IMG/VR virus record: IMGVR_UViG_3300003154_000002 | Span: 1 to 64,000 of that record | DNA: 64,000 bases | Source: a virus | Reading direction: 5' to 3' (one strand) | Shown here: positions 40,931 to 44,630 of the stretch, piece by piece | Position numbering within the stretch: position 1 is the first letter of the stretch | Layout: each line of letters starts with the position of its first letter | The notes under the pieces: model-generated | Databases searched by the model: none | What the model was told of the DNA's origin: nothing | Seen by the model: only the letters and a program-made list of their open reading frames with translations | Program-made: the position numbers and the translations under genes

Positions 40931-41162
40931 AGTAAACAAAATAAACTCTTTTAAAGAACTCTTAAACGAGATCGGTTGGAGTTGGGACTATCCAAGTCAT
41001 AACCTGTTGAGAGACAAGGAAGGTAACTTTATACTTAATAAGTTATACATAACTCCAACCACCGTATCTTACAAAGAAGATAATTGGGATTTATCCCCAG
41101 GAGTATTTGAAAATGTAGTAAAGTTCTATGAGTTTTTAGAAAGTATTAAAGATCCTGTTTAA
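40917..41162 (+). CDS. hypothetical protein (last gene of plus-strand arm)
   Basis: 81-aa ORF. Its 3' end overlaps the convergent endolysin gene by 17 nt. Confidence 0.5.
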   Translation: MFVNKVNKINSFKELLNEIGWSWDYPSHNLLRDKEGNFILNKLYITPTTVSYKEDNWDLSPGVFENVVKFYEFLESIKDPV

Positions 41163-41742
41163 ATTTATACAAATCAAACTTATCCCCCAAATCTACCTTT
41201 CGACCGGGTGGAATAGCAACAGCTTTATGATCTGTAATACTATCTTTGCCTATGTTGTACTTTGACATTAACCTTCTCACTAGCCAAAGTAGTGATTTAT
41301 ATTCTTCTTCAGTTAACGGGTCTTTGGTTGTATCCCCCGTTAACTCGATCCCAATAGAAAACGAATTAACCCCTCTCACACCATTATATTCTGATACACC
41401 AGCGTGCCAAGCCACATCTTCGTCTTTAACCAATTGATATATTTCACCCTGTCGCCCTATAATATAATGTGTACTAGCTTTAGCTTCAATATTACATAAC
41501 CAACTTAAAGCGCCTTCTATGCTATTGCTTCCTGTGTGATGAAGTACTATTAACGTTATTTGCCTATTCGGTTTAATAGTATACATTGAAGTAGGATGCC
41601 AAGTAATTATTCTTTGTTCATTGTTTTTTGTATCTGACATAGGAATATTATGTTTTATTATAATAGGTACCGTTCTTTTTTGCTCTCTTTTTGCAAATAT
41701 AGAAGTAAGAAAGCTGAACAAAGTTTGCAATAAACCTAACAT
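41146..41742 (-). CDS. N-acetylmuramoyl-L-alanine amidase endolysin (Amidase_2/PGRP fold) with hydrophobic N-terminus
   Basis: LIVLHHTGS, STHYIIGRQGEIYQLV, AWHAG and FSIGIELTG motifs. N-terminal MLGLLQTLFSFLTSIFA. Confidence 0.85.
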   Translation of the reverse strand: MLGLLQTLFSFLTSIFAKREQKRTVPIIIKHNIPMSDTKNNEQRIITWHPTSMYTIKPNRQITLIVLHHTGSNSIEGALSWLCNIEAKASTHYIIGRQGEIYQLVKDEDVAWHAGVSEYNGVRGVNSFSIGIELTGDTTKDPLTEEEYKSLLWLVRRLMSKYNIGKDSITDHKAVAIPPGRKVDLGDKFDLYKFKQDL

Positions 41743-41743
41743 A

Positions 41744-41965
41744 CTAGTTCCCCTTTATTTGAAGAAACGTATATAACAAAGCTATTCCTGCCGGAAAAGC
41801 CCCACCTATCATTCCCCATAATCCGACTTTTACTTTTATCATCGCTACGTCCATACGTACTCGATCTACCTTATTACTCAAATCACTGATATCTTCATCT
41901 AATCTTTTCAATTCAGATAAAACTAATTTCTGATATTCTGACCAACCGTTTTCTCCATGAGTCAT
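41744..41965 (-). CDS. holin-like small membrane protein
   Basis: 73 aa. Helical N-terminus and one C-terminal TM (VGLWGMIGGAFPAGIALLYTFL). Lies directly upstream of the endolysin. Confidence 0.5.
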   Translation of the reverse strand: MTHGENGWSEYQKLVLSELKRLDEDISDLSNKVDRVRMDVAMIKVKVGLWGMIGGAFPAGIALLYTFLQIKGN

Positions 41966-41967
41966 AA

Positions 41968-42429
41968 TTACTCCAACTTCTGTTCAACGCCGCTAACCTC
42001 AACAGCAATAACTAAAATTCCAATTACTTCTCCCTCTTTATTTTTATAAGGGACTTTTATAGTTCTTACTGTTAGTGTTTTACCTTTTCTATTAGTTATA
42101 TTTTCTAGATACGAATGTTTTATTCCTCTATCCAAAACAACTAAATCATCTCTATAAAATTTATCTGACTGTTCTTTTGTATACCACTGTTCCATGTTCG
42201 TATTAATCATTTTATCGGCGGTGGTCCCACAAAAATCGGCCATATATTTATTGACTCTAATATAATTGTTCTTCTTATCCTTAAGACATATAAAAGCAGG
42301 AATAGTATCAATCATACTTTCTAATTCCCATTTAATATCTTGTAAGGCGTAGAGTTTTTCTACAAATTTTCTCCTGCTTCTTGTATTCTTAAGAATGTAT
42401 CTGCAGACATTATAACTCCCTATACCCAA
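41968..42429 (-). CDS. stand-alone PAS-domain protein
   Basis: IPAFICLKDKKNNYIRVNKYMADFCGTTADKMINTNMEQWY...DDLVVLDRGIKHSYLENITNRKGKTLTVRTIKVPYKNKEGEVIGILVIAVEVSG follows the PAS pattern over its whole length. No output domain. Confidence 0.7.
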   Translation of the reverse strand: MGIGSYNVCRYILKNTRSRRKFVEKLYALQDIKWELESMIDTIPAFICLKDKKNNYIRVNKYMADFCGTTADKMINTNMEQWYTKEQSDKFYRDDLVVLDRGIKHSYLENITNRKGKTLTVRTIKVPYKNKEGEVIGILVIAVEVSGVEQKLE

Positions 42430-42749
42430 CCATAATTGATTGTTTTCAATTTTTTAAGGACTTGTTCTTTAGATAATCCTGATCCTTCTATATAAGCTTC
42501 TAATTCCCATTTCTTACGCCACGGATTATAAAATAAAGGTAAACAAAACAAATAAAGAAAGTAATATTTAAACATCCCAACTTTAGACATTTGTTCTATA
42601 TGAATGTTTTCATGGGCCACTAATCTAGTACTTGGTGTATAGCCAACGGGACAATAAAGAGTATGCCCAATTAACGTACAAAATTTACTCGTTGGATGAG
42701 CTATTGGATAGGTTAGCCACCATATCCAAGATTTAGGTTTAAAGTTCAC
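42420..42749 (-). CDS. small HExxH-motif protein (putative metallopeptidase-like or fibre accessory)
   Basis: VAHENIHIEQ motif, a hydrophobic stretch FKYYFLYLFCLPLF, and a position directly downstream of the tail fibre gene. Confidence 0.4.
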   Translation of the reverse strand: MNFKPKSWIWWLTYPIAHPTSKFCTLIGHTLYCPVGYTPSTRLVAHENIHIEQMSKVGMFKYYFLYLFCLPLFYNPWRKKWELEAYIEGSGLSKEQVLKKLKTINYGWV

Positions 42750-42752
42750 GGA

Positions 42753-44630
42753 TTATCCTCTAAAAACAACATATGAAAAAGCAGCATCTGTACGTGTTCC
42801 ACTAGCAGCAAATGCAATATAAACATCAAACGAATCAGAATCTACCGACTGAACTGTAGCGATTATCGCGGCAGATGAAAATACAGTAACTATAACCGGA
42901 TATGATGTATTAGCCATAGTATTACTTAAATTGATTCTATAAATTCCACTACCCGACGTATGAGAACCGCCAGAATAATTCCAAGTACGTCCAGACGTAC
43001 CATTAGAATTAATTGTTCCCCAAGCTGCAGGAAAAGAATCCCCATAAAATTTAAATGATAAACCAGACGAATCTCCCGTGGCCGGATTTACATAAAGACC
43101 ATCATGTGCTGTTAATGTATCAGCAAAATAACCCGTTGAATTTGCCTGAAAGGAACTAGTACTAAGGTGCGCCCCACAAGTAATATCCCCGGTTGTTGTT
43201 ACACTACTCCCAGTAATAGCTCCGGTAGCAGCTATATTTTCAGTGGCGGTAATACTTCTTCCAGCGATAACTCCATTAGGACTCACAGCAAGAGCATTAA
43301 CATTCCCACCTGTAGCATTAAAATTTCCTGTATTAGAAGAAATACTCCCACTAGCAGAAATAGTTGAACCAGAAGAAATATACCCACTCGTTGCAACAAT
43401 ATTCCCTACAGACGTAGTAATATTCCCCGTTGTTGCTACGCTACCTCCAGTAATTGCGCCGGAACTAGCTATAGTAGTTCCAGAAATAGCGGTACCAGCA
43501 ATTGAACCAGTACTTATTATTTGAGTTGGGCGTATAACAGAGGCTTCACCTTGAGTACCATCATGATTGTGGTCTCGGAATTCAGTAACTGCCCGAGTAT
43601 CTTCTAGATTCGAAATGGTCGGAGTAGAATATGAAAAAGTAGCGACTTTTAAATATCTCTTTCCTGTCGATATTCCCGTAGCTGAATCAACAACATAGTG
43701 GTCTCTTTTTACCAACCTAAAAGGAACATTTTGCACAGTTACTGGAACTGTTGTTTTGGCAGCATCGTCTCCTACCGCAGGTTCTCTGCTAATAAGAAAT
43801 GTTACTGTTTCCCCAGATCCGGTAAAAGAAGAGTCTATAATTGTAAAATTATTTCCGTCCGAATCTATTAATTGTCCATAAATATATTCATCTACATCTG
43901 GGGAAGAATAAGGTATTTTCTTAGCCGTGTTTAGAAAAGTAACGGAGCAGTTAGCTCCCTCGGTTGATAAAGCAGTTAAAGAAACACTGCTTATTTTAAG
44001 ATCCGAAGCTGTCGGTGTAACAGAAATTTCATTAACGTAATGATATGTACTTCCAGATAAAGGATACGTTGGAGTGTTAGTCAAATCAGCAGAAGGAACT
44101 ACGTGAATTTTGTAGATTAATCTACCCTTAAATTCAGTAGTCTCAGAAAGATTTTCTCCAATCAAGAAAGGATCGATAGCGACTCCCGTTTCTGGTGAAC
44201 CAGAGGCTTTAACGAGTTCTTCTAGGGCTTCAATAACAACAGAATAAGCCAGTGCTGGTGTAGTTCCCCCAGAATTAAAAGTAATAGCTTTACCACCAAC
44301 ATCCGTAGACGTTGCTGATAGGTCGGTTACAGTAGTATTGAGAGGTAACGTACCACCATTTACTAGTGCGTCTGTTCCAGATTTTAACAGGAATGGTAAT
44401 CCATCACACCATCCTTCTCCTGGTCTAACAACTAAAGTACCACTTTTATTCTCTACGAGAAAGGCATCACTAACACACACATCTCCGTAAGTTTGTTTAA
44501 TGTGATTTCGGAGCTGCTCAAAAGATTCGAGCTGTAAATCAGTGGCTTCTGATGCCAATAAATATTTAGCTTCTTGGAACTTACTCCGATAATATTTATT
44601 AGGTCTAAAAGAATTATAAAGCTTAGACAT
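42753..44630 (-). CDS. tail fibre protein
   Basis: 625 aa at the end of the baseplate block. Gly/Ser/Thr/Ile-rich short repeats (SGAITGGSVATTGNITTSVGNIVATSG...) and a beta-rich C-terminal domain. Confidence 0.7.
   Translation of the reverse strand: MSKLYNSFRPNKYYRSKFQEAKYLLASEATDLQLESFEQLRNHIKQTYGDVCVSDAFLVENKSGTLVVRPGEGWCDGLPFLLKSGTDALVNGGTLPLNTTVTDLSATSTDVGGKAITFNSGGTTPALAYSVVIEALEELVKASGSPETGVAIDPFLIGENLSETTEFKGRLIYKIHVVPSADLTNTPTYPLSGSTYHYVNEISVTPTASDLKISSVSLTALSTEGANCSVTFLNTAKKIPYSSPDVDEYIYGQLIDSDGNNFTIIDSSFTGSGETVTFLISREPAVGDDAAKTTVPVTVQNVPFRLVKRDHYVVDSATGISTGKRYLKVATFSYSTPTISNLEDTRAVTEFRDHNHDGTQGEASVIRPTQIISTGSIAGTAISGTTIASSGAITGGSVATTGNITTSVGNIVATSGYISSGSTISASGSISSNTGNFNATGGNVNALAVSPNGVIAGRSITATENIAATGAITGSSVTTTGDITCGAHLSTSSFQANSTGYFADTLTAHDGLYVNPATGDSSGLSFKFYGDSFPAAWGTINSNGTSGRTWNYSGGSHTSGSGIYRINLSNTMANTSYPVIVTVFSSAAIIATVQSVDSDSFDVYIAFAASGTRTDAAFSYVVFRG

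Follow-up and report, generated by a model that had tools for sequence, protein, structure and literature searches.

The stretch of viral DNA analyzed here comprises the first 64 kb (64,000 nucleotides (nt), referred to as the window) of the 117,406-bp IMG/VR virus record IMGVR_UViG_3300003154_000002. On its minus strand, within a mechanical open reading frame (ORF) at positions 41968-42429, a PAS fold is encoded directly upstream of a gene for a 73-amino-acid (aa) membrane protein, which is in turn followed by the gene for an endolysin. The PAS domain is real, and the pairing of a PAS gene with a gene of this membrane-protein family is frequent and is repeated with non-orthologous PAS domains, but it is not universal. 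The PAS gene is dispensable, i.e., it is not required for lysis, which does not mean that it is functionless, and the copy in the window is probably inactivated or truncated. The general PAS/membrane-protein phenomenon is more interesting than this degraded copy. As a tentative reading, on which we are close to evenly divided and in which function is deduced from gene position, the gene encodes an optional cytoplasmic PAS sensor that would modulate the holin-like membrane protein, probably in the timing of lysis.

Identity and fold of the PAS domain

The first-pass annotation of the window, made from the sequence alone, described a complete PAS domain devoid of any output domain, and both parts of this description hold. 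The Pfam family PAS_4 is matched at 41989-42309 with 38.0 bits (cut-off 23.1), and PAS_9 (30.7 bits, cut-off 27), PAS (30.5, cut-off 22.6) and TIGR00229 (39.7, cut-off 22.9) are likewise matched above their cut-offs, while the structural model of a homologue displays the PAS fold. The product matches PAS families alone, i.e., no kinase, GGDEF or DNA-binding (helix-turn-helix) part was found, and the chain ends about 8-10 residues past the last PAS strand. Elsewhere in the 117-kb genome no PAS family is matched.

An exhaustive HMMER search returned 19,302 proteins at E <= 0.001, where nearly all of the top matches are proteins of 400-4800 aa with many PAS repeats. The nearest cellular relatives are single PAS repeats of such multi-PAS proteins (30-37% identity), and the alignment takes in the linker helix that precedes the repeat. 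The PAS protein probably originated from such repeats, linker helix included, in bacterial multi-PAS sensor kinases. Just one close relative with a single domain emerged from this search, the 147-aa protein P0018, which has 56% identity with the joined window product (55% in the HMMER search). An AlphaFold2 (AF2) model was built on this intact homologue, rather than on the window copy, from an alignment of 35 sequences. In the model (mean predicted local distance difference test (pLDDT) score 96.2) a single helix, residues 3-36, is followed by a canonical PAS core in the order beta-beta-alpha-alpha-alpha-beta-beta-beta, i.e., a five-stranded antiparallel sheet with short helices. A Foldseek comparison of the model with the PDB gave 598 matches at E <= 0.001, of which the best 50 listed are all PAS domains; the top matches are VqmA (TM-score 0.70), CPS_1291, NifL, ARNT, the Aer PAS domain and an HTR-like protein. 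As a sequence query, P0018 matched nothing in the PDB.

Known classes of PAS protein were considered as candidates for the phage protein and rejected. The GXNCRFLQ motif of the LOV type, with its adduct-forming Cys, is absent from the sequences of the window and of the related loci L002 (which encodes P0018), L014 and L012 (Table 1). A heme PAS domain of the FixL/DosP type was rejected for want of a His on the F-alpha helix (residues 79-95 of P0018, LEADKFFRDDKLVLERG; EQSDKFYRDDLVVLDRG in the window); His99, which is conserved in the clade, sits past this helix at the start of G-beta. A VqmA-type receptor was rejected because there is no C-terminal DNA-binding domain, the chain ending about 10 residues beyond the last PAS strand. 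The Cys of the ADFC motif is replaced by Ser in L014.

Recurrent pairing with a membrane-protein family

Relatives of the PAS gene were found via the exhaustive HMMER search and, indirectly, with the 73-aa neighbor as a query. Other routes gave none: a word-index search with the PAS ORF and P0018 returned each sequence itself only, tblastn against GenBank phages found no PAS relatives, and neither did scans of IMG/VR and JGI metagenomes with the PAS protein, a two-sequence profile and a degenerate DNA pattern for RVNKY.ADFC. Where the PAS gene is present in the window lineage (L002, L014 and L007-L013), it ends 1-3 nt before the membrane-protein gene. Of the 57 fetched loci (327 kb in total), 51 were searched in six-frame translation with a profile of the window-type PAS domain, and every match was the ORF directly upstream of the membrane-protein gene.

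In three further clades beyond the window lineage, the gene next upstream of the membrane-protein gene encodes a PAS protein (L018-L021, L024-L026 and L039 in Table 1). The four PAS types differ in architecture, and their cross-scores are 14-20 bits compared with up to 79 bits to cellular PAS repeats. By these scores, the four types are not each other's nearest relatives, and each of them has its closest counterparts among cellular PAS domains. On the membrane-protein tree the trait of an upstream PAS gene requires five changes.

The consensus of the membrane-protein profile, NGW.EYQKLVL.EL.R ... LKVKSGLWG..GG.IP, describes a helical part followed by one C-terminal transmembrane segment. The profile identified 44 IMG/VR loci and just two unannotated matches in GenBank phages. 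A profile scan of genome contigs found no prophage copy, so that no host can be assigned. The order of a small membrane protein followed by an endolysin is common to L003, L004, L007-L014 and L005. The 73-aa protein is small, has one transmembrane segment and lies next to an endolysin, as would be expected of a holin; it matched no described holin family and is here referred to as putatively holin-like. Among its possible counterparts, XhlA (PF10779) was matched by none of 35 family members at E <= 0.01.

Members of the family also occur with other neighbors. In L041, a 134-aa Cupin_2 protein (1949-2353), i.e., a small ligand-binding fold, is encoded directly upstream of the membrane-protein homologue with an 8-nt overlap. 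Other members are preceded by proteins of 125-141 aa that are not PAS-like, and an hhalign comparison of the PAS profile with the 133-141-aa upstream proteins of L038, L042 and L050 revealed no similarity.

Presence and absence of the gene in relatives

The closest relative of the window, L003, shares synteny from the baseplate to RecA and has a membrane protein that is 84% identical, and it has no PAS gene; the same gene order is found in L004. The HExxH gene, named after its motif and located between the fiber-like gene and the PAS region, varies independently: it is conserved in L002, L003 and L004 and absent from L014, which has retained the PAS gene. The PAS and HExxH genes are thus optional cassettes between the fiber and lysis genes. 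Where shared, the genes have diverged to comparable values (PAS 54-65% identity, amidase 50-65%, HExxH 50-62%).

The first-pass annotation had itself taken absence or decay of the gene in close relatives, with the lysis cassette unchanged, as telling against its reading of the gene, and this is what is observed, since L003 and L004 lack the gene and the window copy is frame-broken. Because the PAS gene is absent or broken where the cassette is unchanged, it is not required for lysis. As to how the gene disappeared, the 26-nt spacer of L003 (5975-6000) resembles the last approximately 25 nt of the window PAS gene (41966-41995), GGC.TGAA...TTGGAGTA, including the ribosome-binding site of the membrane-protein gene. 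This likeness, seen by eye, is a hint that the PAS gene was deleted, not inserted.

Gene start and frame break in the window copy

According to the first-pass annotation, the PAS protein has 153 residues and is translationally linked to the HExxH gene by a 10-nt overlap. This ORF, which opens at TTG 42429, is mechanical only. The TTG was rejected as a start codon because it lacks a Shine-Dalgarno sequence and because the N-termini of homologues match another frame; the first 20 residues of the ORF are unlike P0018. The overlap, and with it the link to the HExxH gene, is an artefact, and the true start is ATG 42410. This ATG is preceded by a GGGAG ribosome-binding site (Table 1). GGAG-type sites with a spacing of 5-6 nt are also found before the membrane-protein, amidase and HExxH genes, and the ATG of the PAS gene in L002 and L014 is preceded by AGGAG/AGGAAG.

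The two intact homologues, P0018/L002 and L014, are both 147 aa long and begin with MSPNNFAKIQEAGQKF and MPEDNFKKIQEAGEHL, respectively (N-termini MSPNNFAKIQEAGQKFAESY and MPEDNFKKIQEAGEHLTSTLY). These N-termini match the 16-codon ORF MSADTFLRIQEAGENL, which opens at ATG 42410 and is read in the +1 frame with respect to the PAS core, and the PAS frame aligns with P0018, without gaps, only from K21/F22 onward. These two observations place the start at 42410 and show a break of one nucleotide; the true gene extends from 42410 to 41968 and, in this record, is frame-broken after codon 16, in the middle of the N-terminal helix. In DNA alignments, within GGAGAAAATTTGTAG, the window is 1 nt shorter at the break than L002 (CAAAAATTTGCT) and L014 (GAACATTTAACA), where the placement of the missing base is ambiguous (the A-run or TTG/GTA). 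The part in the PAS frame is 54-65% identical, without gaps, to the L002, L014 and L012 proteins.

A public gene call (P0001) starts at an internal ATG at 42315, which corresponds to Met39 of the mechanical ORF, and its 115-aa product would be the PAS core, with 32 of the 34 residues of the helix missing. At this position three relatives carry Leu or Ile, and the ATG is found only in the frame-broken copy; it is therefore not the ancestral start and may have arisen either by coincidence or as a restart codon that compensates for the break. For annotation, the lesson is that neither the public 115-aa call nor the mechanical 153-aa ORF is correct. A predicted RNA fold of this region (42280-42430, minus strand; minimum free energy -33.1 kcal/mol, z = -2.35 relative to shuffled sequences) pairs the GGGAG site and the first PAS codons with the frame-break region.

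It is possible, if doubtful, that the window copy is a recent pseudogene, i.e., a decaying accessory gene that is currently functionless here, in a sub-lineage that is losing it, by a frameshift in the window and by clean deletion in L003 and L004. The frame breaks as early as after codon 16, the closest relative by membrane protein and synteny lacks the gene, and because the more distant L012, L014 and L002 lineages are intact, loss within the window/L003 group is the parsimonious scenario. Less easily explained by decay are the 131 codons past the break, which are still open in a genome of about 35% GC and are 64-65% identical to L014 and L012, the same value as between L014 and L012, as well as the in-frame ATG 42315, unique to the window copy, which could yield a 115-aa PAS core. 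Open and equally conserved as they are, these codons imply that the break is recent, compensated or artefactual. An artefact would mean that assembly or sequencing dropped a base from a short A/T run (A4T3; with A5T3 the frame would be kept), in which case the phage encodes an intact 147-aa protein. We consider such an error unlikely. The missing base does fall in or beside homopolymer runs and the sequence downstream of the break looks as if it were under selection, but the large genes of the window are all uninterrupted, and when the 12 kb that are syntenic with L003 are compared, most called genes have similar lengths and no gene is divided between frames. The clearest exceptions in length are the large fiber-like protein (948 residues in the window compared with 909 in L003) and one other gene (210 compared with 167). 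The assembly is therefore not generally error-prone, and in short-read assemblies errors in runs of 4-5 bases are rare.

The sequence at the break also has the appearance of a site for programmed -1 ribosomal frameshifting, where slippage at A_AAT_TTG (42369-42363) before the TAG would yield a 16-aa peptide and a 147-aa PAS protein at a fixed ratio. The heptamer is in the X_XXY_YYZ phase in the frame of ATG 42410 and is directly followed by the stop codon, and the shifted product, MSADTFLRIQEAGENLVEKLY..., would have exactly the 147 residues of the homologues, its ENL matching EHL in L014; in addition, the region folds somewhat better than shuffled sequences (z = -2.35). We nevertheless regard this mechanism as very improbable. 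All three related lineages use a single continuous frame, the heptamer is the automatic by-product of the loss of one A from GAAAAATTTG, and by our own estimate from base composition it would occur by chance in about one in ten such 16-codon stretches. A stimulatory structure at a suitable distance downstream is not apparent, and the predicted fold pairs the slippery site with upstream sequence. Furthermore, A_AAU_UUG is not among the heptamers that are efficient in E. coli, and frameshifting on the tetramer U_UUG is barely above background even with a pseudoknot (PMC4066793). If the break is genuine, the window copy would give either nothing useful or a helix-less 115-aa core by restart at ATG 42315; alternatively, the break would be an assembly error.

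Functional role of the PAS protein

The tentatively favored role, that of a sensor acting on the holin-like protein, would involve the following steps. A protein of about 147 aa, consisting of one 34-residue N-terminal helix and a PAS core and lacking an output domain, would be made from an optional accessory gene of the late operon, translationally coupled to the downstream membrane-protein gene, which in the window lineage directly precedes the endolysin gene. The PAS protein is predicted to be cytoplasmic because it has neither a signal peptide nor a transmembrane segment, and the N-terminal 45 residues of the membrane protein should also face the cytoplasm, because this protein has no signal peptide and carries KVK directly before its transmembrane segment. 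The PAS protein would bind this cytoplasmic domain, probably helix to helix via its own N-terminal helix, such that the action at the membrane, most likely endolysin release or lysis timing, would come under the control of a ligand or state inside the cell. The PAS protein would thereby act like an antiholin-type accessory regulator, which may be lost without losing lysis, and the absence of the gene from L003 and L004 with an unchanged cassette fits such a dispensable regulator. Of the link to lysis suggested in the first-pass annotation, the connection to the membrane or lysis step remains plausible and has comparative support, i.e., the PAS gene lies 1-3 nt upstream of the membrane-protein gene in the relatives that have it, and non-orthologous PAS proteins take the same place in three clades; what speaks against the link is that the gene is dispensable and is frame-broken here.

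A number of observations weigh against a sensor of this kind. The contact between the PAS and membrane proteins is putative, being proposed from gene position. No cofactor class can be assigned: neither the LOV motif nor a His on the F-alpha helix is present, and the Cys of ADFC is not conserved. The membrane-protein family is not a recognized holin family, with no Pfam match and only the unannotated phrog_1103 matched, by 4 of 35 members. Homologues of the membrane protein mostly lack a PAS neighbor, and in L022, L023, L027-L032, L034 and L037 the homologue is located between the large terminase (Terminase_6N) and the portal protein (phrog_213) instead of beside an endolysin. This position is odd for a holin. 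The membrane-protein tree is weakly resolved (72 columns, 3 starred branches). Finally, a frame-broken copy in the window together with a nearest relative that has no PAS gene means that, in this sub-lineage, whatever the PAS protein does is not needed for lysis.

A different target has also been considered, namely the host. Acting as a decoy, the PAS protein would heterodimerize, via its linker helix and PAS sheet, with multi-PAS sensor kinases of the host and block or distort their signaling. The kinship to PAS repeats of large sensors (30-37% identity), with the inter-PAS linker helix retained, is in line with such a role, as is the presence of PAS-PAS heterodimers such as ARNT/HIF among the structural matches. 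We find it rather improbable, because the gene is found at the extreme end of the late operon while phage genes for host take-over are usually early, and because a decoy leaves unexplained why four unrelated PAS types are found directly upstream of one membrane-protein family. A role as a fiber chaperone was rejected, since the PAS clades outside the window lineage keep the membrane-protein neighbor and no fiber gene is recognized beside them.

The sensor reading may be extended to the family as a whole, in a form that we regard as speculative and somewhat doubtful. On at least three or four occasions, phages would have acquired a different bacterial PAS domain and placed it directly upstream of a member of this single family of tail-anchored coiled-coil membrane proteins, thereby forming a sensor-gated membrane switch. 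The PAS domain would read a metabolite, redox or energy signal, a helix-helix contact would hold back or release the holin-like protein, and lysis would be timed by the state of the host; broken or deleted copies would then represent natural variants of a "rapid-lysis" type. Lysis timing is thought to be governed by a clock intrinsic to the holin, apart from the superinfection-triggered lysis inhibition of T-even phages. If a PAS sensor indeed acts on a holin-like protein, the final step of infection could be one at which lytic phages read the physiology of the host. Natural controls are available from the recurrent pairing, both between clades, where four non-orthologous PAS types are combined with one membrane-protein family, and within a single lineage, where intact, deleted and frameshifted PAS copies are found.

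Genome setting and gene order

The record has direct terminal repeats (DTR) and is rated 100% complete. Early and replication genes occupy the plus strand up to 41162, and the structural genes, which include sheath, tube, baseplate-J and fiber-like proteins, occupy the minus strand from 64000 down to 41146. The phage is a large DTR myovirus. A close cultured relative was not found: megablast of the region gave no match, the best GenBank phage matches of the baseplate protein are only about 25% identical, and the 948-aa fiber-like protein and the baseplate protein used as queries revealed no close viral relatives.

In the order of transcription, the end of the late arm comprises the 948-aa and 625-aa fiber-like proteins, the 109-aa HExxH protein, the PAS region, the 73-aa single-transmembrane protein and an Amidase_2 endolysin (Table 1). 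These are the neighbors that had been described by the first-pass annotation (fiber-like, HExxH, small membrane protein and endolysin), and the 2-nt gap that it reported between the PAS gene and the holin-like gene is confirmed, with the stop codon TAA at 41970-41968 followed by ATG 41965. The stop codon of the membrane-protein gene ends at 41744 and is separated by 1 nt from the amidase ATG at 41742. No promoter or terminator signal above chance separates the PAS gene from its neighbors. The gene for the 625-aa protein is the last one of clearly structural type ahead of the accessory and lysis block.

Table 1. Features of the late-arm end in the window and gene order at related loci
Feature or locus	Position	Strand	Description	Remarks
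625-aa distal fiber-like protein	42753..44630	-	weak PHROG tail-fiber match	syntenic homologues in L002, L003, L014
109-aa HExxH protein	42420..42749	-	upstream of the PAS region	separate, variably present gene
Ribosome-binding site GGGAG	42416..42420	-	5 nt upstream of ATG 42410	overlaps last base of the HExxH stop codon
True 5' end of PAS gene	42360..42410	-	ATG and 15 codons, then TAG; MSADTFLRIQEAGENL, stop	+1 frame relative to PAS core; starts N-terminal helix
Frame break	42360..42369	-	heptamer A_AAT_TTG 42369-42363, then TAG 42362-42360	near GAAAATTTG
Rest of PAS gene, PAS frame	41968..42363	-	VEKLYALQDIKWELES...VEQKLE, stop	second half of helix, PAS core 41989-42309, stop TAA 41970-41968
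Internal ATG (Met39 of mechanical ORF)	42313..42315	-	start of 115-aa public gene call (P0001)	weak Shine-Dalgarno
73-aa tail-anchored membrane protein	41744..41965	-	helical N-terminal part NGWSEYQKLVLSELKRL...	one C-terminal transmembrane segment
Amidase_2 endolysin	41146..41742	-	PF01510, 113.8 bits; PHROG endolysin families	last late-arm gene
L003, 98-kb Logan contig			fiber (643 aa) - HExxH (111 aa) - 26 nt - membrane - amidase	PAS absent
L004, Logan contig			order as L003	PAS absent
L002, ENA			fiber - HExxH - PAS (147 aa) - membrane	PAS intact
L014, JGI			fiber - PAS (147 aa) - membrane - amidase; no HExxH gene	PAS intact
L007-L013, JGI			PAS (3' part seen) - membrane - amidase	PAS intact as far as seen
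L005/L006, temperate forest-soil phage			unrelated 73-aa protein - membrane (56% identical) - Peptidase_M15_4	PAS absent
L018, L019/20, L021, L025/26			174-178-aa PAS protein: N-terminal transmembrane segment, coiled coil, PAS (Pfam)	overlaps membrane-protein gene by 1-4 nt
L024			172-aa protein: coiled coil and PAS (Pfam PF00989, 55 bits)	overlaps membrane-protein gene by 1-4 nt
L039			279-aa PAS protein (Pfam)	25 nt upstream of membrane-protein gene

Two of the neighbors have features of their own. The HExxH protein (109-111 aa; window 42420-42749 on the minus strand, L002 1147-1476, L003 5639-5974, L004 617-952) is encoded directly after the fiber gene and displays an invariant HE.IH..Q, an aromatic hydrophobic stretch YFLY.FC.P and the motif NPWR.KWE.EAY. 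It matches no Pfam or NCBIfam family, its AF2 model (pLDDT 63) has no fold match, and a PHROG "protease" match is weak (E = 0.014). The amidase has an N-terminal hydrophobic segment, LGLLQTLFSFLTSIFA (41676-41742, minus strand), where the basic cluster KREQKR follows the segment instead of preceding it, a placement that differs from the usual charge arrangement of signal-anchor-release endolysins.

Comparison with known systems

Small proteins annotated with a "PAS domain" are found in other phages, e.g., the uncultured-phage proteins A0A6J5KZZ3 (169 aa), A0A345MNJ9 (182 aa) and A0A6J5NY05 (205 aa) and those of Cellulophaga phages phi18:3 and phi19:1. They resemble the PAS protein described here in that they are short, have the PAS fold (Foldseek E 1e-8 to 1e-5 for the UniProt/BFVD entries) and show no evident output domain; they differ in being only 11-20% identical, and they are uncharacterized. 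In the full-text literature no paper was found on output-less PAS proteins in phage lysis cassettes.

The multi-PAS hybrid sensor kinases (PAS_4/PAS_9, TIGR00229 "sensory box") share with the phage protein both the linker helix and the core, including KD..N.Y.RVNK, DD..V and K.PY, whereas the phage protein is a single module without a kinase. The phage clade differs from cellular PAS domains by replacements at characteristic positions, i.e., GI.HS for G.PK, V/I for the Trp of RW..T, and D/E-V-S/E for the DIT motif.

The membrane protein is best compared with XhlA of the B. subtilis element PBSX and gp24.1 of SPP1 (PF10779). These proteins have about 70-90 residues, with a cytoplasmic coiled-coil N-terminal part and one C-terminal transmembrane segment, and are encoded in the lysis cassette upstream of an amidase. 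The architecture of the window protein is alike, but this is resemblance rather than membership, given that PF10779 matched 0 of 35 family members.

For the proposed regulation, the antiholins RIII (cytoplasmic) and RI (periplasmic) of phage T4 provide a precedent. Both are small and dispensable, bind a holin domain and retime lysis on a signal, and loss mutants are viable. The analogy is functional only, since RI and RIII are not PAS proteins and have no relation to the window protein in sequence or fold, and since binding and lysis control by the PAS protein are putative.

To our knowledge, VqmA_Phage of vibriophage VP882 is the one phage-encoded PAS protein that has been characterized. The first-pass annotation, which was not aware of any role described for such a protein in phages, overlooks this PAS DNA-binding receptor (PMC8284805). 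VqmA and VqmA_Phage (V. cholerae and VP882; PDB 6ide, 6ugl and 7dwm) are the best structural match of the PAS core, with a query-normalized TM-score of 0.70 at about 20% identity. VqmA differs in being a transcription factor with a DNA-binding domain at its C-terminus, in the case of VP882 one of a temperate phage, whereas the protein of the window is without output domain, belongs to a late operon and has no relation to VqmA at the sequence level. What VqmA_Phage has in common with the role proposed here is that it makes the decision to lyse depend on a small-molecule signal.

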